Shown: positions 8,254-56,700 of the stretch, piece by piece | How the letters are laid out: each line of letters opens with the position of its first letter | Numbering within the stretch: the first letter of the stretch is position 1 | Notes under the pieces: model-generated | Database searches by the model: none | Told to the model about the DNA's origin: nothing | What the model saw: only the letters and a program-made list of their open reading frames with translations | Assembly: GCF_006345805.1 (NCBI RefSeq) | Contig: NC_043010.1 | Coordinates: 36,456,001-36,520,000 of the forward strand | Reading direction: 5' to 3' | Length of the DNA stretch: 64,000 nt | Source of the DNA: Octopus sinensis | Lineage: Eukaryota | Program-made: the position numbers and the translations under genes

Positions 8254-8295
8254 TCTGTTACTCTGAGTTTCTCGTTCCGTTCATCATAGTTTTTG
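8254..8295 (-). ncRNA. Degenerate minimal hammerhead ribozyme in a short TA-embedded element (about 8150-8300)
   Basis: Minus strand reads aUGAUGA acg-gaa-cga GAAA cucagag UA acag; C3 and stem I are damaged. Confidence 0.5.
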
Positions 8296-8300
8296 CTAGA

Positions 8301-8333
<33 letters not shown>

Positions 8334-8353
8334 ATAATATATTATATATATAT

Positions 8354-8400
<47 letters not shown>

Positions 8401-8694
8401 CATACATACATACATATAATATATATATATATATGCATACATACAATACATACATACTACATACATACATACATAAATGTGTGTGTATTCTCGAGCAAGA
8501 CACTTTAATACATGCTGCTGCTGCTGGTGCTAGTGCTGCTTCTAGGGGTGGACCCTAACTAAAAGCACATAGAAAATAAGAAACCTACCCACAGTACGAT
8601 TAGTCAATGCAGACCAACGGAAACCCAAACCACTTCTGTATCGCTACAAGAAGCCACGAATAATCAAACACCGTGAGAAAACAACAGCAGCAGC

Positions 8695-8727
<33 letters not shown>

Positions 8728-8761
8728 AACAATAACGATACTAATACTACTACTACTACTA

Positions 8762-8829
<68 letters not shown>

Positions 8830-9108
8830 TGATCTTGCCAAATACAAGCAATAAGTTCTTTGCATAGAATCAAACACTAATATCAAATACGTCAAATAAC
8901 CTATTTAACTCAGTCACTATGGTAGTATCGAGAGAAACTGTGTTTTGAGTCCGATAGCGTAAAATCAACTTCTCTTCCTACGCAAATAGCAACATAAAGC
9001 CAGAAAGAAAAATTGAAAGAAATTATTCACAAAAGGAGAAATACTTATCATTACTTAGTGAAATAAAACGGAAGTTATCTAATGTTAAGAAGGCAAACAC
9101 ACACGGAT

Positions 9109-9158
9109 GTATGTATGTATGTATGTATTATGTATGTATGTATTATGTATGTATGTAT

Positions 9159-9199
<41 letters not shown>

Positions 9200-9200
9200 A

Positions 9201-9242
<42 letters not shown>

Positions 9243-9599
9243 ATATATATATATATATATATATTTATCTATCTATCTATCTATCTATCTATCAATCTAC
9301 CAATCTATCTATCTATCTATGTATCTATCTATCCATCCATCTATCTATCTATCTATCTATCTATCGATCTATCTATCTATCTATCTATCTGCCTATCTAT
9401 CTATCTGTCTATATATATGTAGTATTAAGGTTTGACGAAAAGAAGTGTTGCTGTGTGGATGCGAAAAAAACTTGTGCAACTGATTGGGCAAAAAAACATT
9501 CCTGATAAAATATTTTGGAAAAATGCAATGTATGGGGAATGTATACCATCGTTACGTATATATATATATATATATTATATATATATATATCTATATATA

Positions 9600-9634
<35 letters not shown>

Positions 9635-10068
9635 CATATATATACATACATACATATATAATAGGTATATATATAATATATATATATATATATACATACA
9701 TACATACATAAATACACACAAACACAAACACACAATATATATATGTTGGTGTGTGTATGTATGTATACATATGCATGTAATTATATATATTATATATCGA
9801 TGTGAAATATAATAATGAAACGAAGGATGGATTATCGCCCCACTAACAGACAAATTCAATCACATTGCGAGAACATATCGAATGAAAAATATTGAATCTC
9901 ACAAACGCACAAAAGATGTTGCATGAATAAGAAAGGAGACAAGGGATATTATTACGTACGTATGTGTTTGTGTGTATATATGTATATATATACTATATAT
10001 TATATATATATATATTATAGATATATACATACATACATATTATATATATGCATATATATTATATATAG

Positions 10069-10116
<48 letters not shown>

Positions 10117-10144
10117 ATATATATGTATATACGTGTATATATGT

Positions 10145-10185
<41 letters not shown>

Positions 10186-10240
10186 CATATATATATACGC
10201 GCACACACACACACGTATACATGCACTTACATATATAAGA
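9109..10240. repeat. Compound (TATG)n/(TCTA)n/(TA)n/(CA)n microsatellites
   Basis: Direct reading. Confidence 0.95.
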
Positions 10241-10891
10241 AGGAAGCTATCATACTAACATCATAACAACGGCCTAGCAGAATAAGAAGCAAAAAAAGAA
10301 AAAAGAAGCTAGAACCAAAGACAAAAGAAGAAAATCTGATGGAGAATCTACCCACGTGATCAAGACGGCTTGCAACTCACTAAAAACCTCTCTGGAATTG
10401 ATAAAATCTCAAATGTGCGCAGATTCGTAGATGTAAATGGAAGTCGTTGCTAAATCGAACAGTTATTGAAGATAGAAATAACACAAAATCTAAGCGTGGT
10501 ATGGAATTGATTACCAAAGAAAAATTCTTTGATAGCTTAGCATACTTTACTTATACACATATCACAAAAACCTTGTGCATGTACAAAGGAATCGCCAGTG
10601 CAAAGATACTGCGTCAACTACGCCATGCCAAAGAAAGGAAAATATACATCAATATTATAGGCACAGGCGGGGCTGCTTGATAAGAAGTTCGCTTTCCCAT
10701 CACATGGTTCCGGGTTGAGTCTCACTGCGTGGCACCCTGGGTAAGTGCCTTCTATTATTTCCTTCGGGCTGACCGAAAGCCGCGTGAGTGGATTTGGTAA
10801 ACGGAAACTGAAAAAAGTTCGTCGTATATATATAGTTCAGTTACGGAAAGCAAAATACGAAGACAGGTGAAGGAACAACAAGCAGGTGTGT

Positions 10892-10930
<39 letters not shown>

Positions 10931-10932
<2 letters not shown>

Positions 10933-12121
10933 GGGTGCGTAAGGTATCTGAGGACATACCTTTTTTGGGTCATTTTTGCATATTTTGCCTACCCTGTATA
11001 ATCTTTGTTTCAGAAAATGATAATAGCGGACCCTCAGTTTATTCAGGAAATGGAGAGGCATGCTGTTATTGTGTTTATAATGGTTGAGCATAGCAATTTA
11101 GAAATATTGCGATTTTTAATAGTTGCCAGATCTTTCATCTACAAAGTTTGTAAGGAGCTAGAGACTGAAGATGGAAACGTATCATCAGTATCAAAGCATA
11201 AAAAGCATTCTAAGCGCTCTTAAATCATCAGAACACCTGAATTTATCCAGCAAGTTCAACAGATCATTGATTACAATCCCAGAAAGTCCATGAGGTCAAT
11301 TGCACAAGATCTCCATGTGTTGAAAGGAACAGTTAGAAATGTTGTCCACGAAGACATCAGATATAAGGCTAAATGAGGAAAGGTCAGTTTGTCTGAAAAA
11401 ACAAAAGAAAATCACTACATCAGATCTAAAAGGCTCTTAAACAAACTGAAAGATCCAGCAGAAGATTTGGTTTGGTTTTTCTTAAACGAGAACTTCAGAA
11501 GTTCCAAGTGTTATGCATACAAAATTTCCTGCAACTGTCATGGTTTTAGGGGTCGTCAGCAATGAAGGAGATGTGATGCCTCCTTAATTCTTTCCACAAG
11601 GCCTTAGAGTTAATTCTGCCGCCAACATTGAGATCCTGGAAATAATTTTTAAGCCCTGGATAGACAGTCTATGCAATGGAAAGCCATATGTGTTTCAGTA
11701 AGACTCTGCACTATCACACATAGCTCTAGCAACACGGGAATGGATGGCTGAAAATTTTCATGATCACATAGCCCCTAAAATTTGGCCTCCTAATTCCCCT
11801 GATCTCAATCAATCCATTGGACTATTACATGTGGAGCGTTGTTGAGAGAGAGGCCAATGATCACGCCCATAACACCAAAGATTCTTTGAACCAGACAATG
11901 ATCAGAGTAATGTCCAAAATGAACTAGGATCACTTGATTCAAGCATGTAGATGATTTAGATCTCATATAGAAGCAGTTGTTGAAGCTATATTGAATAACA
12001 TTCTAGAAATGAAGGTTTATTTTTATCCTCATAGCATTTTTTTATAAATAAAGTTATCTGTTATGGTAAACCTCTTATTTTTATAAACATAAATTTGTCC
12101 TCAAATACCTTACGCACCCTG
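10931..12121 (+). mobile_element. maT (DD37D) Tc1/mariner-superfamily DNA transposon, both ends intact but transposase pseudogenised
   Basis: 26-bp TIRs CAGGGTGCGTAAGGTATCTGAGGACA / TGTCCTCAAATACCTTACGCACCCTG, with TA on the left. Transposase remnants VMVLGVVSNEG, YVFQ*DSA, WPPNSPDLN(fs)PLDY give D-37-D spacing once a 4-nt duplication is removed. Confidence 0.92.
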
Positions 12122-12125
12122 GTTA

Positions 12126-12166
<41 letters not shown>

Positions 12167-12184
12167 ATAGTAGAATGATTATGA

Positions 12185-12582
12185 GAAAGTTCTTGGTACA
12201 GTATTATATATATTTGAAAGAATGAGTAGAGATGGTTTTTTTGAGGGGATAATTTTAATTTTAATCTTAATAATAATGTTTACAATGAGTTACTCAGATA
12301 TGAGATTCAAGCTTCCCGTAGCCGTTAACCTTGAAACTCATATCACACAGTAACTCACTGTAAAATTATTATTAAGATTAAAATTAAAATTATCCCCTTT
12401 AAAAAGCCATATCTACTCATTCTTTCAAATATATATAATACTATACCAAGAACTTTCGTCCCTTTCTGTAGAAGAGCGTAGGCTCGAAACGTAAAAAAGT
12501 TTTTCTATTTCTGTTTGTTTTTCTATTTCTGTTTGTTCTGTACACCGCCTGTCTTTTGTTTTTTTTTTCGTAAACTCTCCCT
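12185..12582 (+). mobile_element. Fold-back PLE-like short element with a hammerhead-like motif
   Basis: 12185-12310 pairs with about 12330-12457. This is followed by CUGUAGAA gagc-guag-gcuc GAAA cg UA at 12466-12493, a T-rich tail and (TA)n. Confidence 0.65.
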
Positions 12583-13606
12583 ATATATATATATGTACGT
12601 GTGTGAGTCTGTGTGTGTGAGTTTTTGTCTGTGTTTGTTTCTCACTACTGGCTGACAACCGATGATGGTTTGTTGCGTCCAGTAACTTAGCGTTTGGGCA
12701 ATATGGACCGATAGAATAAAATCATGCCATAGGGTCGATTTGTTCGACTAAAATTTTTTCAAGGTGGTGCCGTAGCTTGGCCACAATCTATTGACTGAAG
12801 CAAGGAATAGAATGAAAGAATACGGACAAGACCTGAAATTCAGGAGAGAGGACTACAACGATCCGAAAGAATGAAAGACAGAAAAAAAAAAGAATAAAAG
12901 AAGCGACCGTAGTAGAATTTGATCTCAGAACTTAAAGTCACAATTTGTGTTGACCAGCGTACACACGATTCTGTTGGCTCGTTGCCTTGGGTAATTCAAG
13001 GTTTTTAAGTAGGTTTTAAACGCTGAAAACTAGAATAGGGCAATTTTCATCAATACACAGTAGTAGAAAAGAAAAGCACTAATTCAATAGAACTTGCAGA
13101 AATGAAGGAGAAAATTAGAATAGATTATAGAAGAGTATAATTGTTAAGATAAAAAGAAAAAAATAACAAAGCCTGCAATAAGATTATGGCTATAAATACA
13201 CAAGCTGCCTCAGTCATAAACAACCGTTTCGACATAATAAATTGGAAGGTAAGTGAACTGAAGCGCTTAGATAAGAAGACTATAAAACACTCACAACATT
13301 CCGAACTCACTATCATAAAACTAAGATATAACAGCGCGTAGACAAGGGAGAAGACGCAGATACGTACGCAGTGTTGTTAGGAAGACAGACACCACATGAG
13401 TCTAGAAAAATACTTAAAACCCAGAAAAAGGCACCCCGATTAGTATTATAAGATAACATAAAAAAAACACAAACATCTCTCACACACACATACACACACA
13501 TTATACGCCCGCATTCAAGAAAACGAGAATGTACAAACTAGAAGTTAATTACACAGGGAAAAGGCTTTGATAAGGGCTAGACAAAAGAAAACAGGAAAAT
13601 AAAATG

Positions 13607-13607
<1 letters not shown>

Positions 13608-13666
<59 letters not shown>

Positions 13667-13681
13667 GAGTAGAGTGCAGTG

Positions 13682-13736
<55 letters not shown>

Positions 13737-13799
13737 GAGTAGAGAGCAGTGCATTATTATTATTATTATTATATTATTATTATTGAGTAGAGAGCAGTG

Positions 13800-13852
<53 letters not shown>

Positions 13853-13966
13853 TTTTTATTATTATTATTATTAATTATTATTATTTTTATTATTATTATT
13901 ATTATTTTTTATATTTATTATTATTATTATTATTATTGGTTTTATTATTATCATTATTATTATTAC

Positions 13967-14012
<46 letters not shown>

Positions 14013-14026
14013 GATGTTGTTATTGT
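13608..14026. repeat. (ATT)n microsatellite with three 16-bp retroelement 3' stubs
   Basis: GAGTAGAG(A/T)GCAGTGC at 13667, 13737 and 13785. Confidence 0.9.
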
Positions 14027-14337
14027 AGTTTAAAAAAGAAGGAAGAAAAAGCGATAAAAATTAAACAACAAACACCCCACAAAGAACTAATGGAACAATT
14101 GTTGAGGGAGAGAGAGAGAGAGAGAGAGGGCGATGGAGAAGGAAAAGAGAGAGACAGAAATCATTTTTATGTTAAGTGTACCGTATGACTGGAGGAGAGC
14201 GAAAGGAAATGGGTTAATATGAACTGGGAACAAAAACACGAAAGCTTTAGATTAAGATAAAGAACGGAAGTCAGATTTTAGATACACAAATTCTATGCCT
14301 ACTGCGCGCGCACAATAAAATAGAATTGCCAATCGTG

Positions 14338-14438
14338 GCACTCCGTCGGTTACGACGACGAGGGTTCCAGTTGATCTGATCAATTGAGCAGCCTGCTCGT
14401 GAAATTAACGTGCAAATGGCTGAGAGCTCTACAGATAC
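14338..14438 (-). mobile_element. SINE family C 3' fragment
   Basis: Matches 63294-63395 (GCACTCCGTCGGTT...GCCTGCTCGTGAAATTAACGTG). Confidence 0.8.
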
Positions 14439-14439
14439 A

Positions 14440-14604
14440 GGCGCAGAAGTGGCTGCGTGGTAAGTAGCTTGCTTACCAACCGCATGGTTCTGGGTTCAGT
14501 CGCACTGCGTGGCACCTTGGGCGAGTGTCTTCTACTATAGCCTCTGGCCGACCAAAGCCTTGTGAGTGGATTTGGTAGACGGAAACTGGAAGAAGCCCGT
14601 CGTC

Positions 14605-14673
<69 letters not shown>

Positions 14674-14876
14674 CTGTGTTTGTCCCACCAACATCGATTG
14701 ACAACCGATGTTGGTGTGTTTATGTCCCCGTAACTTAGCGGTTCGGCGAAAGAGACCGATAGAATAAGTACTAGGCTTACAAAGAATAAGTCCTGGGGTC
14801 GATTTGCTCGACTAAAGGCGTTGCTCCAGCACGGCCGCATTGAAATGACTGAAACAAGTAAATGAGTAAATGAGTA
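14440..14876 (+). mobile_element. SINE family B, full length, with internal (TA)n(TG)n
   Basis: tRNA-like head GTGGCTGCGTGGTAAG...GGTTCAGTC, GGCACCTTGGGCGAGTG core, and 3' ATGACTGAAACAAGTAAA tail. Confidence 0.9.
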
Positions 14877-15589
14877 TAAGTGTACTCATAATGTATTATG
14901 ACTAGTATTTTAACATTAAAAAATACTAAAATCCCATAGTGAAAAGCGTGAAAACCAGACCATGTTTTAACTTTATTCAACGGTTATATTATTCTATACA
15001 CATTCATACAAATTCGGAAAGAGTTTTTTACATTCTATGTTAATTTTTTTTATTACTTTCTGCTGGAGAGTGTAGGCTGAAAACGTACAAGACATTTTCA
15101 TTTTTCCGAATGTCAAACTAATACACCTGTTTTCGTGTTTAGTCTTTCTATAAATTTCGGCTATATATAGCGTTGCTAATATATAAAAAAGGTTCTAAGT
15201 CCAATACGTTGCTTTTTCACAAAAAGAAAAAAAAATAGCTTCACTATTCCATAGCAAAACCGCTGTACTACACTTTGATAATTTTTTTATATCTTGACAT
15301 TTCGAGCAGCTGGAGATACGATAGTTTGACCAAAATAACCGTTTGTCGCAAGCAAAAATAATTATTGAAAAAAACGCACTTGGCCAAATTTAGACATACG
15401 ACATTTCAATATAATAACAATGATATATATATAATATATATATAATATTATATATATATACTTTGATACTTTGATAGGTTTCGGCCATTATTGGCCCAGG
15501 TCATGTCTAACTTAATAGCACCGCCTGGTGCTATAGATATATATATATATATATGACGGAACGCACGCATCCATTTCTAAGTAAGATTG

Positions 15590-15688
<99 letters not shown>

Positions 15689-15761
15689 TATATATATAGA
15701 TATATAGATAAATATATATATATATATAGATATAGATATATAGATAAATATATATATATAT

Positions 15762-15816
<55 letters not shown>

Positions 15817-15912
15817 TAAGAGATGTAGGTGAAATAGCACAGAAGTTAATAATATAAAACATTTCAATTTAAGAAGGAATTTAATAAAATGATTTTAAAA
15901 TTATAGAAAGAA

Positions 15913-15950
15913 AATATTACCGGTTTCAATGATGAATCTTATCAAATATC
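15913..15950 (-). ncRNA. Minimal type I hammerhead ribozyme, U3-A8 variant
   Basis: Minus strand: gauau UUGAUAA gau-ucauc-auu GAAA ccgg UA auauu. Stems I and II are weak. Confidence 0.6.
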
Positions 15951-16329
15951 AGCAAAAATTTATGAAAATTTTAAATAAAAACGGTTAACCTACCTGGGTG
16001 TGAGGTAGGGAAGTAATACACACGCATATGTGTATGTGTATGTTTGTGGCACACATATGTGCATTTGTGTGTGTTTGTGTGTATATATGTGCGTGTGTCT
16101 TTGTGTCTGTCCCCGATCAGCACATGACAACCGGTGTTGGTGTGTTTACGTCCCCGTAGCTTAGCAATTGAGCAAAAGTGACGGATAGAATACGTACCAG
16201 GCTTTAAAAAAATTAAGTTCTGCGGTCTATTCAATTGATTGCAAAAAAAAAAAAAATCAAGGCTGTGCTCCAACATGGTCGTAGTCTAATGACTGAACAG
16301 ATGAAAGAAAAGCTAAAAGAATACAAAAT

Positions 16330-16896
16330 GTTCTTTTCTACTCTAGACACAAGTCCCGAATTTTTGGGGGAGAGAGCCAGTCGATTTGATCGACTCCAGT
16401 ACGCTACTGGTACTTAATTTAATGACCCCGAAAGGATGAATGGTAAAGTCTACCTCGGCGGAATTTGAACTCAGAACGTAAAAGAAATTCAAAATATTCT
16501 TTTCTACTCTAGGCCCAAGGCCCGAGGTTTTGAGGGAAGGGGCCAGTCGATTAGATCGACCCCAGTTCGCAACTGGTACTTAATTTATCGACCCCGAAAG
16601 AATGAAAGGTAAAGTCGACCTCTGCGAAATTTGAACTCAGAACGTAAAGACAGACGAAATACCTATTTCTTTACTACCCACAAGGGGCTAAACACAGAGA
16701 CGACAAACAAGGACAGGCAAAGGGATTAAATCGATTATATCGACCACAGTACGTAACTGGTACTTATTTAATCGACCCCGAAAGGATGGAAAGCAAAGTC
16801 GACCTCGGCGGAATTTGAACTCAAAACCTAAAGACAGACGAAATACCGCTAAGAATTTTGCCCGGCGTGCTAACGTGTCTGCCAGCTCACCGCCTT
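16330..16896 (-). mobile_element. SINE family A dimer/trimer
   Basis: Head near 16895, junction GAAATACCTATTTC at 16656-16669; distal units have the alternative TGCCTAGAGTAGAAAAGAA-type tail. Confidence 0.85.
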
Positions 16897-17199
16897 AAAA
16901 ATACGAAATATTCAGCCATCACTGGAAGACGACCAAAATTACTTTTGTTCGACATGGACAATGTTTTAAACTTTCTCATTTCTCTTTCAGAACAGCACAA
17001 GGTCCACTTCTTGTGTTTGTACGGTGTTGTGGCGTGTATGCGTTGAGGACCCTAAGAGCGATATACCAGCGGTGCACAACTTCCTTGTAGGGACTTCTAT
17101 GTTGGGCAGGTGAAAGGATGGTGGAGAGACTAATACGGACCCTGCCACTTCCCAGAAATAAAATAGATCTGCGTGGGGCAGACCCCAGGATTTATGTTT

Positions 17200-18628: not shown

Positions 18629-18651
18629 TGTTATTAGTGTTGCCGATATGG

Positions 18652-18715
18652 TAATAGTTGTAGTAGTAGTAGTAGTAGTAGTAGTAGTGTAGTAGTAGTA
18701 GTAGTAGTAGTAGTA

Positions 18716-18753
<38 letters not shown>

Positions 18754-18895: not shown

Positions 18896-18928
<33 letters not shown>

Positions 18929-27531: not shown

Positions 27532-27567
<36 letters not shown>

Positions 27568-27634
27568 GTAAAAAGTGAAAAAACTACAAAAGGCTTGTTT
27601 TATAAATTTTTTTCATACAATGACATAGTTTTTG

Positions 27635-27674
27635 AAGAAATGACCGGTTTCGCGTTCAGCTTTTCAAATTTCTT
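27635..27674 (-). ncRNA. Minimal type I hammerhead ribozyme, U3-A8 variant
   Basis: Minus strand: aagaaau UUGAAAA gc-ugaac-gc GAAA ccgg UC auuucuu. Perfect 7-bp stem I and palindromic stem III. Confidence 0.78.
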
Positions 27675-28897
27675 ACATCGTTATGTTTACGTTGAGAAGT
27701 GTGAAGAAAGAGTTCCAGATAAGGGGAGGTAATAAGTGATTTCTTCCGGTGTAAGGGAGATAATCGCTTAATATGAAATTGTGTTGCAAGGTTCCTCATG
27801 TGACACCATGTGTTGAAACAGATATTGATGTATTTCGGGATTATTGTTTTACTTGTTTCAGTCATGTGACTGCGGCCATGCTGGAGCACCGCCTTTGGTC
27901 ATTTCTTTTTCTTTCCTTTTTTGCCCAAATAAACACACACGCACTATATATTCGTTCTTCACTCGTTCATTACTGCTCTAATCCTAACTCATGTCCGGAA
28001 ATCTCTCGTCACACATCGTTGTCGTGACGGAGATCGTCGTGGTCGTGGTCGTGGACATCATTATCACCATCACCATCACCATCACTGTTTCCCCTTGTTG
28101 CTTCCAGCTCTGTTGGAATGAGTTAAATATTCTTTCTACAGAACACACACCATCTTCCATTCTTACTTTTCGGCTCAGTCTTTTCCTTCTCTTTCCGTAA
28201 ACATCTTACCATCTTCCTTTCTCCATCACCTCCCCCCACACACCACCTTTTGCTCTAGCTCTGATTTTACCTGCTTCCGCTTTCGATCTACTTTTACCTT
28301 TCTCACATCCCACCCCACCCCACCCACATTCCTCTTCCCATCTCAGTCCTTTTCTTATTTCCTCTGGTAGCTCTAAATGTCTTAAATCTTTCCAAAACTT
28401 ACTTCAACCAAAACCATATAATTCCCTGACAACAATCTGCATGATACACAAATGTTAAGTGGATTGAAAGTATATAATTAATGCACGGCGCATTGTGAAT
28501 TTGAAATAGGATCAACATGCCAGATACGCTTACGGTACACACACCACACACACACACACACACATACAGGTATATATATATTATATATATATATATATTA
28601 TATATATATATATATAATATATATATATATAATTGCTAACAAGGTGTAGCTTATATATAATGTATGTATGTACATATGTGTGCGTGTATCTGTGTCTGTG
28701 TGCAATATAAAAAAAATTAATATGATCGAATATATAATATATGATATATATATACACATATATTTATATACATAAATATATATACGTGCATACATATGTA
28801 TCTATGTATGTATGTATATATATATATATTATATATAGTATATATATATATATATATATATATACGCAGGCGCACATACATGCGCATCTTTATCTAG

Positions 28898-33378: not shown

Positions 33379-33790
33379 GGCGGCGAGCTGGCAGAAACGT
33401 TAGCACGCCGGGCGAAATGCTTAGCGGTATTTCGTCTGCCGTTACGTTGTGAGTTCAAATTCCGCCAAAGTCGACTTTGCCTTTCATCCTTTCGGGGTCG
33501 ATAAATTAAGTACCAGTTATGCACTGGGGTCGCTGTAATCCACTTAATCCGTTTGTCTGTCCTTGTTTGTCCACTCTATGTTTAGCCCCTTGTGGGTAAT
33601 AAAGAAATAGGTATTTCGTCTACCGTTACGTTCTGAGTTCAAATTCCGTCGTGGTCGACTTTGCCTTTCATCCTTTCGGGGTCGATTAAATAAGTACCAG
33701 TTACGCACTGGGGTCGATGTAATAGACTTAATCCGTTTGTCTGTCCTTGTTTGTCCCCTCTATGTTTAGCCCCTTGTGGGCAAGAAATAA
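33379..33790 (+). mobile_element. SINE family A dimer
   Basis: Head GGCGGCGAGCTGGCAGAAACG; junction GAAATAGGTATTTC at 33604-33617. Confidence 0.9.
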
Positions 33791-34645
33791 GTAGTAGTAG
33801 TAGTTGTCATCGTGTTGTGGCTGAGTACCCCACACCAGACTTACACCCTTAAAGCTTAATTCATAAGCCAAATGAACGGGACTCAATACAATATGGTATG
33901 TGGTAGACGAAAAGTAAAAGAAAAACGTCGTGTGTCCTTCCCAAGCCATAAGGGTCATGTGGTTGGTTTCCCAGATGTTGTCGCGTATATAACCTCCACC
34001 CTGCTCTTAGATGGGACACAGGTCCGTCGCAGGATTAGAAATTTTGCCAGCTGACTGAACTAGAGCGATGTGAAATGAAAAGTATTGCTCAAGAACACAA
34101 CGCGTTCCCTCTTCCAGGAATCGAAACTGAAATCTTACGATCATGCGCCTCCTCCGTATATATTATATGTATTATGTATATATCTATGTGTGTTTTTGTG
34201 GTTGTGTTTCTTTCCTCATTACCACTTGACATTCGGTGCTGGTTTGTTTATGTTCCCGTAAGAGAGCTATAGCTGGCTTGAAAATAACTACAGAGGTCAA
34301 TTTGCTCGTCTAAGCTCTTCAACGCGTTGCTGTAGCGCGGCCGGTGTCCAGAGACTGAATCAAATAAAAAAGAAAACACACACACACACACACTCACACA
34401 TAATATATATATATATATATACATATACACACATATACATACATATACTCTCACAGCCACACGTTACACACATCTCTTGTGAACACACACCGGCGAACTT
34501 TCAGAGCTGCAAAGAGACTGCCAAAAATATTAATCTCTAGTATGGTATCGAGTACTTTTTCTTCTGACAGTCAACACTAAACGCATATGTATACGTGTGC
34601 GCAAGCGCGTGCGTGTGTATAAGCTTCTGAGTGTCAGTGCGTATA

Positions 34646-36901: not shown

Positions 36902-36943
36902 ACTAACTATATATAATTTTTCCCAAATTTAATTGTTTTCCAT

Positions 36944-36988
36944 ATTTGCAGTTGAAAAAGTTTCAATGACTGAAACCGGTACTGAAAT
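36944..36988 (+). ncRNA. Minimal type I hammerhead ribozyme, U3-A8 variant
   Basis: auuugcag UUGAAAA agu-uucaaug-acu GAAA ccgg UA cugaaau. Confidence 0.72.
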
Positions 36989-37133
36989 GTTTTTTTTATA
37001 AAAATATTTTAGCATTTTCTATCTTGACTTTTTATCCATATATATCAACTCGTGTGTTCCTTTTCAACCTTCTACACATACACACACACATATATACACA
37101 CACACACACACACACCACACACACATATATATA

Positions 37134-37214
<81 letters not shown>

Positions 37215-37760
37215 GCAGGGCTCAATTTGATCAAAAGAGACCCTCGAAGGCCATGCTCTAGCATGGTCGCAGTCCAAATACTGAAAGAAGTCAAAGTAGA
37301 AAAAAAAAAGATAAAAGAACTATAATAAAATAAAAACAAATGATTGTATTCCATTCCAATTTCGATGGGAAATTTTAAGTTTTCTGTAGAATTCCATCTA
37401 AAAGTCTGTAAATGGATATATAGTATGTGCACTTTGGTCTGTCTGTCGCGTTTTGTTCTTTGACACTTGGCTCCGGTGCAATGAAAACAGTAAATCATAA
37501 TGCTTCGTGTAATTCCTTTAATAGAATTTGAAAGGACACGGGAGGAGAGAATTGGAGGGTTGGTTGGTTGGTTGATGGGACGGTGGTTCGGTGGGTCAGT
37601 TAGCTGGGTGGGTTAGGTGAATGTAGGAGTGATTTCGTTCTTTGGTTCTGGAAGATAATATGACATTTCATTTTCTATCTATAAAGGCGAGCGCGCGCAC
37701 ATACACATTATATTATGCATACATACACACACGGACGGACACGCACAAACACAACACGTA

Positions 37761-38900: not shown

Positions 38901-39469
38901 ATATAATCATATATTTGTATTAATTGTTTTTGTTATATGCTGGCCAATTGATAAAATCTTTTTTAATGATTTTATACTTAATTATGTATAAATATATATT
39001 ATTTACTCCGGCCAACGTATTGATTGCGGTATCATTTTGGTCGTAAACGCACGTGGTTGAAGTGAATAACTTAGATTTAACTTGTATGTACGTGTGAATA
39101 TTCGTATATATACTTGTGGATAGGTATTATTCGTATGTGTATGTATAAATATTTGCAAAGGGATTTTATATATCTAAGCTATAAATCGATCTATAAAAAA
39201 CCCTTTTTGAAAAAAATCTTCCTTGTTCGTTTTCTCACTTTCAACCTGTGCTAAAGTAGTACAAGATGTGGTTTTTAGAACCATTTGGCGTCTATTTCCA
39301 GCATGTTGGTGCTGCTGTTTATCAGTGCTCTTTATTATGATGATATCTATATAATTATATACTTGTATTATTGTGACCTATATCGTTTTTATTACATGCT
39401 GGACACTTGATACAATCGTTTAATGATTTTACCCTTAATTATGTATATATATATATATATATATATATC

Positions 39470-40073
39470 AATAAAATATAGGGTGAAATCAATTAATTTG
39501 GAGTATCATTAATTTCACCAAGTAGATTTCGGCATGTAAAAGCCCCATTCGAGGAAGGTTAAGTATACTAAGTAATTAGGGTTTAGCAACGATTTGCCTC
39601 ACCACACACCGAATTTAGAAATAGCAGTCAAAGAGTTATGGCTATTCTTTCTACTTAAAAGAGAGATCTCAGTAAAACCACAGCACTTAAAAGGCAAGCA
39701 ACGCAGGTAAAAGAGAAAGAAATGACGACAATCATTCTATATTAAGTCACCTACGGACGTACGTTTCGAAATTAAGTCATAGGAAAGCATAAAAATTAAA
39801 TAATTATGTCTTACCCGACTACTTTTCTCCTCAGCGTAGGACTCTACAATTATGAATAATTGTGTATTAAATTTGGAGGCACTAGAAGACATCACCTCAA
39901 CTCATGGTATCAGAGCGAGCGTAAGCCGTGACCATCTTTCTCTTTTACCTGCGTTGTTTGCCTTTTAAGTGCTGTGGTTTTACTGAGATCTCTCTTTTAA
40001 GTAGAAAGAATAGCCATAACTCTTTGACTGCTATTTCTAAATTCGGTGTGTGGTGAGGCAAATCGTTACTTAG

Positions 40074-42328: not shown

Positions 42329-42371
42329 ACGTCATTGACAAGGTCCAAGCAGGCCAAAACGCGTTTGACGT
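42329..42371 (+). ncRNA. Minimal hammerhead ribozyme, U3-A8 variant, with G12A (likely inactive)
   Basis: acguca UUGACAA gguc-caagca-ggcc AAAA cgcg UU ugacgu. Confidence 0.7.
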
Positions 42372-45287: not shown

Positions 45288-45371
<84 letters not shown>

Positions 45372-47215: not shown

Positions 47216-47335
47216 TATATGTATATATCTTTTAACTTTTACTTCTTTCAGTCATTGGACTAGGTGCACGCAGGGGCACAGGGCCAACTTATACCTTGAG
47301 AATGAATTCTCTTGTCATATATCTATCTATCTATC

Positions 47336-47403
<68 letters not shown>

Positions 47404-47547
47404 GTCTACCTGTCTGTCTATCTATCTGTGTATCCATCTATACATACATACATGCATACATATATATACATACACATATACACGCACACACACACATATT
47501 ATATATATATGCATACGTATTATATATATATATACATATATATGTAT

Positions 47548-47823
47548 AACCCCATCAAGCTTCCTTGGTGAGGAGGGTGTTTATTGGACATCCTGCGGGA
47601 TGAAAAACAAAACCCGTCAAAGGGCGGAGGAACTCTTGAGAGTCAACGGCCATCCAATAAATGTCTTAAGGATGTATCATGCGCGGGGACATAGAAATAA
47701 TCGGACTGAATACCCGATCGCATTTCCTCACTTTAAAAAAAATCTTCTTGCACAGGCATTGCACAATAACAACATTGATTAAGCTTCGTGCGATGGCCAT
47801 ACACGATACGAGGGGGCAGCCAC

Positions 47824-47826
<3 letters not shown>
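47548..47826 (+). mobile_element. TA-embedded GC-richer structured repeat fragment, possibly a non-LTR retroelement UTR
   Basis: Flanked by (TA)n; TTTATTGGA/TCCAATAAA closes three short hairpins. Confidence 0.4.
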
Positions 47827-47857
<31 letters not shown>

Positions 47858-48011
47858 TATTATATATATTATATATATAATATAATATATATATTATATA
47901 TATATACTATATAATATATATATATACATGTATTATACACATACACGTATACACGTATATATATATATAATATATATATATATGTATTGTGTGTGTGTTG
48001 TATATTATATA

Positions 48012-48180
48012 TTCGGCCAGAGTTCTTTCGTCACACTCCTGTGACCGCATCAGTGGTCCTTTGTTTTCTTCTTTCTTATTTGTGTCTCTCCTTACTAACC
48101 GCCAGAAAGAACTCTGGCCGAAATAAGATTAAGATTAATGTAAAAAATAAATAACACTGAAGCAATGTAACACCAAATAT
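48012..48180. mobile_element. Short PLE-like element with 18-bp inverted repeat and a minus-strand HHR-like motif (48015-48059)
   Basis: TTCGGCCAGAGTTCTTTC / GAAAGAACTCTGGCCGAA; minus strand reads cca CUGAUGCG gucaca-ggag-ugugac GAAA gaac UC ugg. Confidence 0.6.
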
Positions 48181-48309
48181 ATAGTGCGTGTGATTTTATT
48201 GGCTAAACTGGCAAAAATTACGATTCCGAAATATAACGATATCTGTTTCAACACACGACTTCACATAAAAAATCTTGCACAACAAATATATAAACGTACT
48301 GTATATATA

Positions 48310-48705
48310 CTCTTTTACTCTTTTACTTGTTTCAGTCATTTGATTGCGGCCATGCTGGAGCACCGCCTTTAGTCGAGCAACTCGACCCCGGGACTTATTC
48401 TTTGTAAGCCCAGTACTTAGTCTATGGGTCTCTTTTTGCCGAACCGCTAAGTGACGGGGACATAAACACACCAGCATCGGTTGTCAAGCAATGCTAGGGA
48501 GACAAACACAGACACACAAACACACACACATGCATATATATATATACGACGGGCTTCTTTCAGTTTCCCTCTATCAAATCCACTCACAAGGCTTTGGTCG
48601 GCCCGAGGCTATAGTAGAAGACACTTGCCCAAGGTGCCACGCAGTGGGACTGAACCCGGAACTATGTTGGTTGGTAACAAGCTACTTACCACACAGCCAC
48701 TCCTG

Positions 48706-48773
<68 letters not shown>

Positions 48774-48797
48774 TTACCACACAGCCACTCCTGCGTA
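48310..48797 (-). mobile_element. SINE family B, full length, head partly duplicated
   Basis: TACTTACCACACAGCCACTCCTGC occurs twice around a (TA)n run. Confidence 0.88.
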
Positions 48798-49198
48798 TAT
48801 ATATACATATACGCATTTACATGTCTATAGTATCTTATATACATGTGTGCATGTATGCACATGTGTATGTATGTGTGTCTTTGTGTTTCTCGCCATAGCA
48901 CGCGACAATCAGTTTACGCCCTCCTATTTAGTGGTTCGGCAAAAAGATATTGATAGAACAAACACCAGAGATGAGCCAAAATGTAAGTGCCGTGATCGAT
49001 TTTCCCGGCGAAAACCTAAAATGGCCGCTGTCCAATGACGGAAACAAATAAAAGAATAACAAAATTCAAAATAACAGAGAAATACAATAAGCTGGCTTTG
49101 TATCTTAGTAAACGAGGTTAAAGTGATGGACGACGTGTTTGCTGTTTCCAGTGTACAGGTAATCTATTTAGCATTCAGCAACTGAAGATGTGGGTGTA

Positions 49199-49283
<85 letters not shown>

Positions 49284-49429
49284 CATATAATATTTTATAT
49301 GTATATATATATATATATATATCTATATATATATATATATATATTTGTATGTATATATATATAATACACACACATATATATACATTCATACATATAAATA
49401 TATACACACAAACATATATATATATATAT

Positions 49430-49507
<78 letters not shown>

Positions 49508-50631
49508 TAGACAGACAGATACAGAAATACATTCATATAAACATGAATGCATACATACATGCCTACACGTATGCATACATAAATTTCTCAGTCTAATATT
49601 GCCCCAAACAAGATCGAAGTTCTTGCTTTTGTTATCTAAGATTTCTTCAGAAACAATTCATTTATAATTAAATAGAAAAGTTATGAAGATGGTAAAGATG
49701 GCAGCGATAACCGTCACTGTGTGTGTGATCTGTAGTGGCATCTGGTGTGTTGAAACGAGTTTGCTTATGGGTTTGTATAACAGGCAACACGTCTATTAAT
49801 GTTTTTGGTCTGCTAGTGTATGTATGCGTGTGCGAGTTTGTGTATGTATGTGTCTGTATGTATGTAGGTGAGCGTGAGTGTGTTTATCTACTTATCTTGA
49901 GAAGGAAAAGAAACACAGGCTTATTTTTTAACCTTTATGACATATTAATTCTGGATAATACTTGATTCTTAAGATTTTCTTTCCTTATTCGGAGTTGATT
50001 GTAATTACCACTTGGTGTTTGTTTACTTACTTCGGAAGCTTAGATGTTTTCAGTAAAACCGAATCTTACCTCGTATGCTATGAAGAATTTATTTAGTAAC
50101 ATATAAAATATATATATCTTTCAAGTGTGCGTGTGTACCTATACGCATGTGTGTGTTTTTATGGTGTGTTTATGAATGTATATGAACACGGGTATTTGAA
50201 AAGCTGAAAACAGGAGAAAGCTTTTACACAAAATAATTACTTCATTTTTTAAAAGTATTTTTTAATATGTTAAATCACATCGAAGGCTGTTAGAATTGTT
50301 AGAATCACGCAGAGGAAAATGTTTAGCGGCGTTTCGTCCATTTTTACGATCGGAGTCCAATTTCCACCGAAGTCGACATTGTCTTTCATCCTTTCGGGAT
50401 CGACAGAATAAGTACCAGTTCATCACTGGGGTCGATGTAATCGACGTACTCCCTCCCTTGAAACTGCTGGCATTGTACCGAAATTTGAAACCAATATATT
50501 AAACAACATTAGATTTAAGACCTCTCTTCAAATTTTGTGACTGTATCAAGGATATTTCCTGAAAACATAAAAAAAAATATGTGCGTGAGTGTGTGTGTTT
50601 GTTTGTTTGTTTGTTTGTGTGTGTGTGTGTG

Positions 50632-50694
<63 letters not shown>

Positions 50695-52449
50695 TGTGTG
50701 TGCATTGAAATAGTGAAAATCATCGCTGCTGATGAAAGAAGACTGTGCACATCCTTTCTTCGTGGGATTGAAGAAAAGAAAACAAGAAATCTCCTTTCAG
50801 ATCATTTTACGCGTTAATCACTGCTTCTCAGAGAAGACATAATCGGCTTCTTTCCCCATTCTACAGTATAGACCATTCAGATACTAAATATAAGCAAATC
50901 ATAAATCTGATTACTGCTACGTTGGTAGATCACCCAAATCTGCAGATCTGGGCTTTTAACGACTTGTCATTAAGTATATAGTATCTATTTTATGAATAAC
51001 ACAGCGTAAACCAGCAGAAGGGAAATATATTTAAATATTAAAATGCTTCGCAGAAAACGAAATAAGTTTGTAAACATATACTTTCTATGCCATTAATGTG
51101 AAGAAGAAAAGAGAAAGCAGTTGTCACCTGATGGACCGTTTCACAATTTCTCGATAACTCCTCAGAGAATATGTACTCGGCTTCCTAACTCCTTTAATAG
51201 CATTTACGATTGCTTGTATACAGTAGCCGCAAATTATGCTAGAATCATAGTTTATCTCCACATCTGTGTTTATGTTACTTTCATATTATCATTTTCTGCG
51301 CCGTGTGCAAATGGTCTGACACATAGAGATTGACGAAAAATAATCTTTAAAAAAATTAAGCGAATCTGGCTTAAGTCTGCTACAGATTCATCTGATGATA
51401 CCTATGTATTTAATTTCCAGCTAAAATACCAGTATGGAAAAACATAATAAACAAAATGTGAAACAGAGGGCACACCACAAAGCTAAAACATCTTTCCACT
51501 TGCTTTTTTACTTTCCGTTTTTTTCTTACCTTTCACCTTCCATCTCTCTCGACGAAGGGAATACGTCCGAAACGTCTACGTAACATTGCCTTCGTCTTAC
51601 AGAGATTTTAATAACATGACTTTACACATTATCCATTTCGTTATTGTTTTATATTTAATTTTCTACATTTTTATTATTGCTGTGATGCCTGGTTATTATT
51701 TACTTGACTAAAATAGGCACCTGAGTGAAAACAATACTGTGGTAGACACCATGGACAAACACGTGCGAAGCCATGCTCCTGCCTGGCAGCACGCCCAATG
51801 ACTGAAACTATTTAACTTTATAGAGTACGTGTACACATAACCCACCATTCACACACACATGCATTCATAAATACATATATACATACACAAACGACATATA
51901 CATGCAGACGTGTATAATATATATATATATATATATATACATATTTATACACGCGCACATACACACGCATATATATATATATATATAAAATATTTACTCG
52001 TGTATAAATCACATCCCTAATTTAATGTTAAATCTTAGTACAAAATCTTTTGGTCTTCATATTCAAATTTGATATCATAACTGACAACGTTAATTACTTT
52101 TGCTTGAGTCAACAAAACAAGCGTCCATGTTGAAACAAATTTATTCACATACAAAACTAAATCATAAACAATACTATGGAAAATAATTATTAGTAATATT
52201 GAAAACAAACAATGAAATAAAATTACGTAACGCAAGTTACAACTAGAAAACAAGGAAAAATCGCATGAAAATATAAAAACTAAATACCAAATAAAACTAT
52301 ATAAAATTACATTAAAACTCAAATTAAAATCAGGAAAATATTAATTACAATTCACATCAAATATCAATTAAAACCAATTAAAATTCTGGAAGAATGGTAT
52401 CTTCATCACTGTGACCCTCAAAGTTCATCCCTTCTCTCTAATTGCCTCG

Positions 52450-53632
52450 GTTATGTCTCATCTTGGAGTAAAAGTGTCCGTTTCCTCCAAGTCGTCATTT
52501 TGGCTTTCGTAGTCCTCCCAAAAGACAGTCATCCTCTGTTGCATCCATCTTGGTAGATATTTCTATATTAAGAAATATTCTATTGAGCATCTGACACAGA
52601 ATGTCACCCCACCTACGTAATAATCCACGAAGTTAACAATGATAAACTTGGTTTTTTTAAGTTGTTTCCCTTGGTCAATTCTTCCTTGTCTAAAGCCATC
52701 CAGATCTTCCATTTCTGGCACTATACTCTGTCTTTAGATGGCTTGTAAATCATGACATCTAAGGGATTTAACAAGGATATAAGTCCTCCTGGTATTACTG
52801 CCTGGACTGAGTTAATTTTGTTCACTTTCTGTTGTTTATTCTGTCTCTTATGATCACGAAAGTGGTCCAATATTAGCTGAGCTTTGTACTTTAGAAGTTC
52901 TATACTTTAGTGAACCAGATTACTAAACCCTTTTCATTCACTCAGCACTTAGGATGTTAGTCTACTCTTGCCCCAGGTGCTAGCCTCTTTCACTTTCCTA
53001 TTGTTCCCTCTTGAATATCACAATTGATTTTAGTTTGTTTCCATTAGCATTACATCCAAGCACTATTGAGAAATGTGTCCTCTCATGTCCTGTTGTACAT
53101 AGTAGTATAGTTTTCTTTCCTCAAGTATCAATTGTTCGGTTTCCAAGTAGATCAAAGAACATAGGACTTTCGCCCGTATTCTCTCCCTGGCTAAGTACAA
53201 AATCAAACTTTTTCATTTACTTGACGATAAAAGTATGGAAGACAGTTATCTTGTCATTAAAGTCAGGGAGTATTTTCTGATAGACCTTTGTTTTTTTTCT
53301 TTCTATCGTTGACTGAATCGATGTCTTTTCATAGATATCTATACCCTTCCGTTCCAAAGTTTGAATGAAAGATCTGTTGGTAGCGTTTTGACGAATCTGC
53401 AGCAAAGTCAGAATAAAATTATCGCCCTTTTGGTTTGTAATCCAGTCTCCTGGTTGCTTCTCCATATCCAGATAGTGAACTTCTTTTCTTCGGCACATAT
53501 GAATTTGGGCATTTATAGTAGAGCTTACTTTTGCTTTCGCCAATCTCTTAAAACACCCTTTCAGCAGCTCTGTTACTATTCAACTCAGCAAGATTATAAC
53601 CTGAAGCTTAACAGCAGTATTATATAAGCATG
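52450..53632 (-). pseudogene. pogo-family (POGK/Passer-like) transposase relic
   Basis: Minus-strand frames give AELNSNRAAER..RDWRKQK, TKVYQKILPDFNDKI, ESPMFFDLLGNRTI..GKKTI..TTGHERTHFSIVLGCNANGNKL..IVIFKR, ILDHFRDH, VIPGGLISLLNPLDV. Confidence 0.85.
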
Positions 53633-54512
53633 GTTTTTCCTTTTCACAAAAACAGACATTATAACAAAGTCATCACTCAAAGAAAGTTCTCACTTTTATA
53701 GAATTAGTTGTTATGTTAAAGGATTGTTTATGTAAGCTGTTTTCCTTTGTACATTGTTTATATTTAACCAGGTTCGTTAATTTGATTAATTAGCGATGCA
53801 TAACCAAGGCACATTGACAAAACAGTATGTAATTAGCGGTATCACTAATGAACGTTATAACAACAGCCAACTTATCTAAACACAATTTTCCATGGATTAA
53901 TAATTTTACAGTTAGATGGGCCTTTAATTAAAGAAATGAGCAAGTTATCACTGCTAATTATTAAAATAGTCGGCAAAATTCAAAGACCAGTTTTGCTGAT
54001 AATCATTTTTATACATTCATATTTAGCAATTTATTCAAAATGGCTGCACTCAAAGCGCTTCATTCGTCGTATTTCTTATGATTGAAGCATAGATATTTTT
54101 CATATTATTCAGTGACATTTACAAATAAATACAGATAAACGATCAATAAGATGGGATTTGTGTTATCAATAATATATGAGTTTATTAATTTCATAAGATT
54201 TGAGTGGAATATAAAAGTTATTGTCTGGAATTTATTCAAACATGGCGTCAGATGATAACGACCGTGAGTAAACTGTAGGTAGATAGATAGGTGGCGCGAA
54301 CAGAGAGAAGGTTTTGGAGTTGTCCCATGCATAATGTCCTACTCTAGAGTTATTTCAAGTAAATCAATTATAAAATCGTGCGACTTATACAGAATAGTAA
54401 ATACGAAATATACGATATATGAATTTGCACCCCAGCATGGCCGTAGCCTCAAGGCTAAAACATATAAAACAATAAGAAAATAAGAAAATATTTGTATAGA
54501 TATGAGTATATA

Positions 54513-54546
<34 letters not shown>

Positions 54547-54769
54547 GGGGGGGAGAGAGAGAATAAAAAACTTGTAGATTTAGCGGTCAATCATGGCGAC
54601 ACACACACACACACATATATATATACACATATATAAATATATAGATATAAATACATATATATAACATACATATAACATATATATACATATATACATATAT
54701 ACATGTATATATATACCTATATACATATATATATACATATATACATATATATATACATACACACACACA

Positions 54770-54826
<57 letters not shown>

Positions 54827-55142
54827 ATAGGATTAGCTCGCATACGAGTAGGTATATATTTGTAAAAAATGAAGTTCGAAAATGCTGCTGTATTATACAA
54901 TTTTTAATTTTTATATATACATTATAACATGTTTCAGTTCCTGAAATGAACCTTATATATAAAAAAAGACAGCTCATGCCGTCAAACACAAGAAATTCAT
55001 TTATAATACACACAGATTCCGCAGTTGGGCCTTCCACATTTTCTAACTGCTGGTTTTGTGGTTGATGTTGAGTGCAGTGTAGCTTGGGTTAAAATCCTTT
55101 TCAAGGATTTTGGTTGCCGTTTACTTTTAATGATGGTGTGTT

Positions 55143-55750
55143 AAAAACCCTTCCCTACATCTCTACACACAACCCACTCAACAATGAGGCCTTCAACACC
55201 ATACTACAAAGCACAGCCCTACTAAAGGGAGACCCAAAGATGAACCGGATCCTCGAAACACACACCATCATTAAAATAAACGGCAACCAAAATCCTTGAA
55301 AAGGATTTTAACCCAAGCTACACTGCACTCAACATCAACCACAAAACCAGCAGTTAGAAAATGTGGAAGACCCAACTGCGGAATCTGTGTCATCTTGAAA
55401 GAAGGATCAGAATTCATACTGGAACAAGGCCACCAGTTCACCATTAGAACAAACTTCACCTGCGCATCAGAAAACTTAATTTACGTCATAACATGCGCAG
55501 GCTGCAATAGGCAGTATATAGGCCATACAAAAAATAGCTTACGTAACAGGGGCGGTGCATAAATCACAAATTAGAACCCTGATTACCGCAAAATACCGGT
55601 CAGCGGACACATAGATAGATGTGCTGGAAATGTAAATCCGAAATTTACAACTAACCCGCTCTATAAATTCAGTGACAACGCACCTTCACACAACGCCAAA
55701 ATAAAGAACTATATTTCATAAAAAAATTTAGACCAAGTTTAAAACCCCCT
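55143..55750 (+). pseudogene. PLE RT-thumb, Cys-rich linker and GIY-YIG endonuclease, frameshifted
   Basis: LPYISTHNP...KCGRPNCGIC...FTCASENLIYVITCAGCNRQYIGHTKNSLRNR...H; the Cys-rich linker resembles Neptune-type PLEs. Confidence 0.88.
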
Positions 55751-55933
55751 GGGCCAGGAATACTAAAACAAAAGATAAGTCCTCCGAAAAGGAGAAGCAA
55801 AATTCCACCACGGCCGCTACTTCAAACAGACACTCACTCTGACGGAAATATGCCTTAGTAAAAGGGAAAAAATTCTTTCGTGCAAATCTGACCCTGATAC
55901 ATACGATACAGCTACGGGTCAGACCCGATTCTG

Positions 55934-56337
55934 ATTGGTCAACAAGTTGATGACGTCTAGCTCTGCTAGAATGGACAGGATACAAACAGGGGACAGTCAT
56001 TAGTCAGAATATTGATGACGTTCTTTTCTGCTTGAATAGTCACCTAACAAGTACAGACAGGGGGCAGATCTAATGTAGCTATAAGTCGTGATTGGGCAGA
56101 ATCTGGATGACGTCCCGTTCTGCTTGACTAACGAAGCGACTGGTCAAAACAGGAAACAACAAGAGGCAGTTATAATGCAGCGATTGGTCAAAATAATGAT
56201 GACGTCCCGTTTATACTTTTTTTTACTACTAAGCCACCTAACGAAACGATTGGCCAAAACGTTGATGACGTCACGCTACACTGGATTGACCACCTAACAG
56301 GCATTATAAAACCGAGCACTTCACAAAAACTCACTAG
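55934..56337 (+). promoter_or_regulatory. PLE pLTR Pol II promoter: five CCAAT(rev)-N12-CRE modules, TATA box and Inr-like site
   Basis: ATTGG/ATTAG at 55934, 55999, 56091, 56183 and 56249, each exactly 12 nt before TGACGT; TATAAAA at 56305; TCACT at 56331. Confidence 0.7.
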
Positions 56338-56640
56338 AACCACCCAGCGAACATCCACCATGGGTCATCACATTTGCTTAAGGTAAAAATGAATTCCTCG
56401 CTCTTTCGGAAACATCAATCTTCTGTATTGACCGCTTTCCACCACTTTGATCTGTTTTTTGTATTGAATACGTATCGCCACCGTGGGCCACTGCATCGAA
56501 CACTTTGAACATATACTTCAAACTATATATCAACTATACATGAACTATATATCAACTATACATGAACTCTAAGATGTCTCACTCCGTTGTGTATTATAAA
56601 CGAATTTCTTGTGTTTGACGGCATGAGCTGTCTTTTTTAT

Positions 56641-56700
56641 ATATAACTTTTTTTGATAAGGTTCATTTCAGGAACTGAAACATGTTATAATGTATATATA
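56641..56700 (+). ncRNA. PLE pLTR minimal hammerhead ribozyme, U3-A8 variant
   Basis: UUGAUAA gguuc-auuucag-gaacu GAAA caug UU; stem I is imperfect. Confidence 0.68.

Follow-up and report, generated by a model that had tools for sequence, protein, structure and literature searches.

Nine hammerhead-like motifs are dispersed over a 64,000-nucleotide stretch of the Octopus sinensis genome (contig NC_043010.1, C14:36456001-36520000; hereafter the window), which has 36% GC, is rich in microsatellites, and belongs to a genome of 2.72 Gb. These sites, named here by their positions in the window, are almost certainly hammerhead motifs of Penelope-type retroelements. They are best explained as 3′-end stubs of Penelope-like families, five of which carry an inherited core with a U3-A8 pair in place of C3-G8; in intact elements this core likely cuts the RNA of the element, weakly and as a dimer, a reading to which we assign a probability of roughly 0.7. 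Each copy in the window is a dead stub standing alone. Nucleotides are numbered, and G12 is taken as the general base, as is customary for hammerheads.

The original prediction of about nine hammerhead ribozymes described the letters at all nine sites correctly, including the five UUGANAA cores (N7 = U, A, A, C, and U) and the six palindromes (CCGG three times, CGUACG, CGCG, and CAUG). A strict rule (core, stem I of at least 3 bp, stem II of at least 2 bp, palindrome of at least 4 nt, and G or A at position 12) finds four sites in the window, all of them U3-A8: 15945(−), 27667(−), 36952(+), and 42335(+). The fifth U3-A8 core, at 56641, has two U·U mismatches in stem I. The type I core with a 3-8 pair (N3-U4-G5-A6-N7-N8-A9 / G12-A13-A14 / A15.1-U16.1 / H17) is complete at 15913, 27635, 36944, and 56641. 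At the other five sites a core position is damaged or absent: 42329 carries A12, 8254 has lost C3 by deletion, 12466 has U6, 48015 has C9, and at 39746 stem I and GAAA are just 10 nt apart, so a CUGANGA-type core is missing. Except at 8254 and 42329, these defects are family-wide traits. The predicted number of ribozymes is therefore too high, and the type I grammar assigned to six main sites holds for the four strict matches, with A12 as a flaw at 42329, but neither for the coreless 39746 nor fully for 56641.

Relatives elsewhere in the genome were found for nine of nine sites and Penelope-type features for eight of nine. Seven of the nine have (TA)5 within 150 nt downstream, versus 30% of window positions with (TA)5 within 150 nt on either side; for 42329 the distance is 1,050 nt. 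Rfam hammerhead models, which are built for a full helix III, gave no window match at the gathering score and no match on the one retrozyme copy scanned. When two of the nine sites were scanned singly, the best hint was Hammerhead_HH9 on 42329 (E 4.3, 10.8 bits versus 52 for gathering). An E-value scan of the whole window with Rfam returned only microsatellite-driven and other chance matches among the best 150 of 326.

Across the genome we counted exact patterns, with the reversed pattern as control; such counts miss decayed copies and may include a few sites twice. For the CCGG loop (gap 7-16), U3-A8 cores number 9,233 (control 48) and C3-G8 cores 135 (control 26), versus 257 for the mismatched C3-A8 (control 28) and 312 for U3-G8 (control 36). 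Of these 9,937 matches, 9,368 have a pair between positions 3 and 8, and single-change cores are ∼30-fold rarer than the double-change U3-A8. The CAUG loop (gap 7-20) yielded 2,207 U3-A8 (control 239) and 961 C3-G8 motifs (control 44), and the CGCG loop 2,126 matches for all four cores together (control 69), with U3-A8 in 94 of the first 100. The U3-A8 motifs of the three loops thus total ∼13,000, a large set, as had been supposed, and one overlooked by CUGANGA-anchored searches and Rfam. The 961 canonical CAUG-loop motifs (e.g. L405-L416) are heterogeneous and older-looking than most U3-A8 families, which hints at turnover in time.

With a 2-nt CG loop, C3-G8 motifs number 9,119 (control 992), whereas U3-A8 stays at chance (2,364; control 2,407). 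Because U3-A8 is at control level there and ordinary C3-G8 CG-loop motifs coexist with it, U3-A8 is a trait limited to the class with 4-nt palindromic loops and not a genome-wide takeover. A further short, non-coding family, represented in the window at 12466 (L512-L521 and L540-L549 elsewhere), has the core CUGUNGA and reaches 14,165 exact 28-nt matches. Stems I and II of this A6U family are intact, and its tail resembles a canonical-core family. A count by eye over its first 100 matches gave U6 in 99 and C3 in 97, with N7 divided among U (49), A (22), C (16), and G (13).

Could the U3-A8 cores be chance matches in AT-rich DNA, or single canonical copies that decayed by C-to-T and G-to-A changes after insertion? 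The low GC content, the CG-loop counts, and the A12 at 42329, a CpG decay of G12, would agree with such an origin. It is refuted, however, by the shuffle expectation of 0.015 sites per window versus the four observed (200 local dinucleotide shuffles, 3 with one site and none with two), by the excess of 9,233 over 48 together with the rarity of single-change cores, and by the 56641 family, whose 20 aligned young copies all have U3-A8. The view that U3-A8 is no product of decay therefore stands, mismatched 3-8 combinations being far from as frequent as U3-A8 in the genome. Editing of A8 from A to I as the switch is likewise unsupported, since U3-G8 (312) is no commoner than C3-A8 (257).

U3-A8 is instead an inherited family state. 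Beyond the young 56641 copies, it is found in most of the 13 old copies of the 42329 family. We collected 254 motif matches in loci of this genome by pattern, with the stems unused in choosing families, and obtained 14 clusters of at least two copies after setting aside 22 singletons; cluster numbers are not a census. In all seven U3-A8 clusters stem I is retained, with a mean of 4.57 of 5 pairs versus 2.33 ± 0.55 with permuted arms (1 of 10,000), and stem II has a mean of 3.57 pairs versus 1.51 when shuffled (0 of 5,000). Stems I and II thus stay paired across seven families while their letters change, which is covariation. Inside single families such as 56641 the covariation of the stems is weak.

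The autonomous carriers of the motif are Neptune-like Penelope elements, in keeping with the Penelope-type origin originally proposed. Their protein combines a reverse transcriptase (RT; Pfam RVT_1, 33.2 bits) with a C-terminal GIY-YIG endonuclease (EN), and the motifs GLKF, DKG, and YLDD and a CX4CxxC linker can be read in it. Linkage to the EN is established for the 27635, 36944, and 56641 families, and loci L031, L034, L035, and L550 bear the hammerhead in the pLTR of an RT plus GIY-YIG element. The 56641 family has an intact representative in L550, with the order hammerhead, 479-aa frame, 781-aa RT-EN frame, hammerhead, and a period of 5,933 bp. The elements show pLTR tandems, an inverted 5′ copy, a tail extension, a (TA)n target, and 5′ truncation, and many U3-A8 matches form inverted pairs 0.1-5 kb apart. 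Both in these elements and in ∼360-bp retrozymes, the motif lies ∼70-240 nt inside the fixed 3′ end. This anatomy matches Neptune or Nematis as described in PMC8557442; our trees were built from unnamed relatives. An identity as Naiads with an overlooked hammerhead is ruled out by the C-terminal position of the EN. An upstream frame precedes or overlaps the RT-EN frame (L550:2674-6374, 479 aa; L031:1419-4616), and the many 781-aa open frames among the endonuclease loci point to recent activity.

We also approached the motif from the protein side. From 30 GIY-YIG loci we left out two that resemble a host nuclease; downstream of the remaining 28, the U3-A8 motif is intact in 17, damaged in three, and absent in eight, and none has C3-G8. 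Fourteen of the 17 intact loci belong to one family group. U4, G5, A6, A9, and G12-A14 are retained in 17 of the 20 motifs found in this way.

In this genome the autonomous families group in a single clade (support 100/100 in one tree and 97/98 in another) with U3-A8 on every deep branch and one U3-G8/C3-G8 family nested within. The 27635, 36944, and 56641 families all fall inside this single Neptune-like clade (97/98). Among 124 related loci of other organisms, a C3-G8 motif near the frame was found in 21, U3-A8 in two, and no motif in 101, and C3-G8 is therefore likely ancestral. The simplest reading for the autonomous clade is one ancestral change to U3-A8 with later reversals; several gains are also possible. 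One U3-A8 motif with a CAUG loop (L332:2161) lies behind a 38%-identical element outside this genome's clade, on a contig that is filed with a bacterial assembly and probably represents animal-host DNA.

This topology speaks against the claim of five unrelated contexts, since the three copies that can be linked share one clade and most simply one ancestral change. It is very improbable that five unrelated elements gained U3-A8 independently and that about nine ribozymes are present. The switch did take place more than once in the genome (within a 360-bp family, along the stem leading to a second group of retrozymes, and among the autonomous elements of the clade), and for 15913 and 42329 no position on the protein tree could be assigned. 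This reading is opposed by U3-A8 on all deep branches of the shared clade and by a core that is not intact at five of the nine sites.

U3-A8 cores also occur in non-coding tandem units of 360 and 362 bp, each with a single type I hammerhead, which form rows of as many as seven. Their 3′ ends are fixed, their 5′ ends vary, and they have inverted arms. These units are retrozymes; none of the nine window sites falls in the 360-bp families. One 360-bp family (L073-L122, L510-L511; ∼90% identity) holds 33 C3-G8, 36 U3-A8, and seven C3-A8 copies, which split as subfamilies even with the core columns masked. The root of one tree of this family depends on a branch of 0.94, and the midpoint root of another was distorted by a truncated row. 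A CpG-first path, in which C7pG8 decays before C3 changes to U, is one candidate for the direction of the switch.

In the second retrozyme group, U3-A8 is present in all sampled copies but one, while stem II and the palindrome (CAUG, CGCG) vary. This 362-bp group (L417-L446, L492-L499, L506, L522-L533) comprises ∼2,000 CGCG matches plus CAUG relatives, forms arrays of up to seven units, and has a long, bulged stem I. Units within arrays, compared as a sign of a circular template, gave a mixed picture: the L522 array alternates two unit types (A-B), and another array is patchy. Contigs from runs presumed to be RNA contain both retrozyme families and a 362-nt go-back join; tandem DNA would give the same, and we did not use them as evidence.

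How might such motifs act? Helix III would arise from two motifs joined by their self-complementary A-NNNN-U, with U3-A8 standing in for the C3-G8 pair in the core, and dimer cleavage after H17 could then release element RNA from tandem read-through transcripts. In retrozymes, cleavage would yield monomers, possibly circularized and copied by the Neptune RT, as modeled in PMC7229834. Cleavage would likely be helpful for insertion but not required. The palindromic helix III is short across families (CCGG, CAUG, CGCG, GCGC). Computed energies show that a one-pair helix III costs 5-6 kcal/mol in the monomer, whereas the A-NNNN-U self-duplex reaches −7.5 to −8.3, in agreement with the dimer model of PMC4209133. 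Copies continue seamlessly through the hammerhead into the next unit, as expected of uncut tandem or circular templates. U3-A8 is natural and active in vitro according to a passage of PMC3088659 citing its ref. 32, and is also reported in Schistosoma elements (PMC4209133). On balance, the well-folded U3-A8 families rather probably do cleave.

Several results weigh against this reading. The six window segments analyzed fold no better than shuffles (z −1.1 to +0.7), and several autonomous families have a stem II of 1-2 bp or U·U in stem I. The 5′ ends of U3-A8 elements are not enriched where the cut would fall (13 matches versus ∼13 true junctions; the control, the first 100 of 112 matches judged by eye, is contaminated by a sister subfamily), with five at the site in the 360-bp family and 0 of 30 among long copies; of ∼35 U3-A8 arms judged by eye, two (L073, L081) start within 5 nt of it. 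Because canonical C3-G8 copies have no pile-up either, this test is uninformative. Furthermore, A6U (14,165 copies), A9C, coreless, U3-G8 (L176, L178), and C3-A8 (L120, L121, L179-L181) families have spread too; with mismatched and core-defective families amplified, family-wide fixation is no proof of catalysis. In PMC9901934, pairwise mutagenesis of one hammerhead left activity low for all core double mutants except G3-C8, the only swap that rescued it. In PMC11167929, mutants of a lizard-element hammerhead left insertion in vitro unaffected, cleavage depended on the protein of the element, and none of the RNA-seq reads had its end at the site.

Taken together, these points would suit a signal that derives from a hammerhead, has relaxed or lost catalysis, and is kept for dimerizing or for RT binding and positioning, in which U3-A8 is tolerated AT-rich drift: core-defective families reach thousands of copies, mismatched subfamilies amplified, the cut site left no 5′-end signature, and cleavage was dispensable for insertion in vitro. 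We consider this unlikely. This reading sits poorly with pairing of positions 3 and 8 in nearly all CCGG matches, with the core positions kept in the protein-anchored motifs, with the 6-bp stem I and 4-bp stem II retained by the U3-A8 retrozymes (fold z −2.8), and with N7 and N17 that vary as in active hammerheads.

The features of the window are compiled in Table 1. The 15913 copy sits in an old ∼330-bp stub (15657-15986) with relatives L025 and L188 at 72-80%; it and 42329 belong to older families, and no reading frame could be linked to either. The 42329 copy is predicted to be inactive. The 27635 and 36944 copies are 3′ stubs of 240-310 bp (27534-27774 and 36906-37217) from two separate RT-linked families, the former Neptune-like with RT/EN linkage seen in L035 and L177, the latter the most frequent among CCGG matches, with RT/EN in L031 and L136. 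The motif at 56641 is fixed in a young family (98-99% identity, 1,011 candidates). The insertion that carries it is 95-98% identical to L550 across its main segments; an inverted arm (54778-55140), from which the hammerhead core is deleted, precedes the forward copy. In this family (56636-56702), the 5′ flank is able to pair with the helix III/cut-site strand, which would block the active form.

Table 1. Hammerhead-related features of the window
Position	Strand	Feature	Remarks
8250..8293	−	Broken canonical C3-G8 hammerhead	Two small deletions, C3 lost; end of ∼200-bp family, 767 candidates
12461..12497	+	C3-G8 hammerhead-like motif, A6U, CG loop	Family with 14,165 exact matches
15913..15950	−	U3-A8 type I minimal hammerhead	Stem I 5 bp, stem II 3 bp, CCGG loop
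27635..27674	−	U3-A8 type I minimal hammerhead	Stem I 7 bp, stem II 2 bp, CCGG loop
36945..36987	+	U3-A8 type I minimal hammerhead	Stem II 4 bp, CCGG loop
39750..39783	−	Hammerhead vestige: stem I, GAAA, CGUACG palindrome, no core	Young ∼390-bp non-coding family, 1,374 candidates
42329..42371	+	U3-A8 hammerhead, G12 to A at CpG	Old family, 67-77% identity
48015..48059	−	C3-G8 hammerhead-like motif, A9C, non-palindromic loop 3	Fixed in ∼630-bp tandem family, 45 candidates
54778..56826	+	Neptune-like insertion, 5′-truncated, between (TA)n runs	GIY-YIG fragment 55144-55688, then 3′ untranslated region
56647..56692	+	U3-A8 hammerhead	Stem II 5 bp, CAUG loop, two U·U in stem I

The vestige at 39746 is a state fixed in its family and lies between inverted arms (39585-39720 and 39935-40070); this family (window 39440-40070, L191-L210) has a fixed start and two alternative 3′ ends ∼30 nt apart. 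The 8254, 12466, and 48015 motifs derive from C3-G8 families. At 8254 (window 8100-8305, L462-L476), both family ends are fixed between (TA)n runs, with the canonical hammerhead ∼16 nt from one of them. The 12466 stub is set into an inverted pair of another short repeat end (12180-12460, 798 candidates), and the 48015 copy bears an 18-bp inverted duplication (tandem family, L447-L461). In addition, the window contains tandem arrays of one related 166-184-bp repeat, which we take to be SINE-like (6306-7409, 16314-16648, and 33426-33794).

The U3-A8 variant and its link to Penelope-like elements are already known. For Schistosoma mansoni, PMC4209133 (Cervera and de la Peña 2014) describes ∼1,300 minimal hammerheads with U3-A8, located by way of the Cercyon element. 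Like those of the Cercyon pLTR, the octopus motifs are type I, minimal, near the 3′ end of a Penelope-like element, mostly single dispersed copies with some inverted pairs, and predicted dimers. Unlike them, they number ∼13,000, have a 4-nt palindrome loop and a stem II of 1-5 bp (7-8 in the main Schistosoma motifs), and reside in carriers with a Neptune-type linker in which U3-A8 is the state of a whole clade. With Neptune elements, as portrayed in Craig et al. 2021 (PMC8557442), the carriers share an RT with GxKF, DKG, and YLDD, the CX4CxxC linker, the C-terminal GIY-YIG, the upstream frame, pLTR tandems, the inverted 5′ copy, the optional tail, the (TA)n target, and the 3′ hammerhead; the core differs, and the "cuganga" core search described there would not report UUGANAA.

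Similarly, the retrozymes resemble animal non-LTR retrozymes as presented by Cervera and de la Peña 2020 (PMC7229834) and in the preprint by Li, Clavereau and Pollet 2026 (10.64898/2026.07.22.740005): their tandem units of ∼360 bp are non-coding and have a single type I hammerhead each, they range from monomers to 7-mers, and their insertion pattern is of the Penelope type. In contrast to those retrozymes, the largest groups here are U3-A8, one family holds C3-G8, C3-A8, and U3-A8 subfamilies, and the evidence comes from DNA. The hammerheads of Perreault et al. 2011 (PMC3088659) share the compensatory U3-A8 pair, described there in several examples only; in the octopus, dimer-type motifs bear it as a trait of retroelements across the genome. 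The parts consulted of an O. vulgaris repeat paper (PMC13282606) mention neither hammerhead nor Neptune.

What is added here is the scale and natural history of a known variant. Our searches of the open literature turned up no octopus hammerheads, U3-A8 retrozymes, or natural A6U core; paper supplements may cover them, as may Lunse et al. 2016/17, reportedly a survey of Penelope hammerhead variants. With the patterns tested, roughly half of all hammerhead-like motifs counted are U3-A8, and neither CUGANGA searches nor Rfam detect them. Within one young family, both paired states occur together with a mismatched intermediate, which makes it a natural series of steps in a compensatory change. 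Sister families whose cores are intact, swapped, A6U, A9C, or deleted are material on whether cleavage matters for Penelope-type transposition. A bolder and rather doubtful proposal is that the youngest Penelope-type elements run on non-standard working cores, with ∼13,000 U3-A8 motifs (at least three replacements of C3-G8, and C3-A8 caught mid-switch) and at least 14,000 A6U motifs with free N7. If this were true, more than half of the hammerheads in an animal would escape standard descriptors, and the families would be a natural series in which to measure the amount of catalysis required for retrotransposition.

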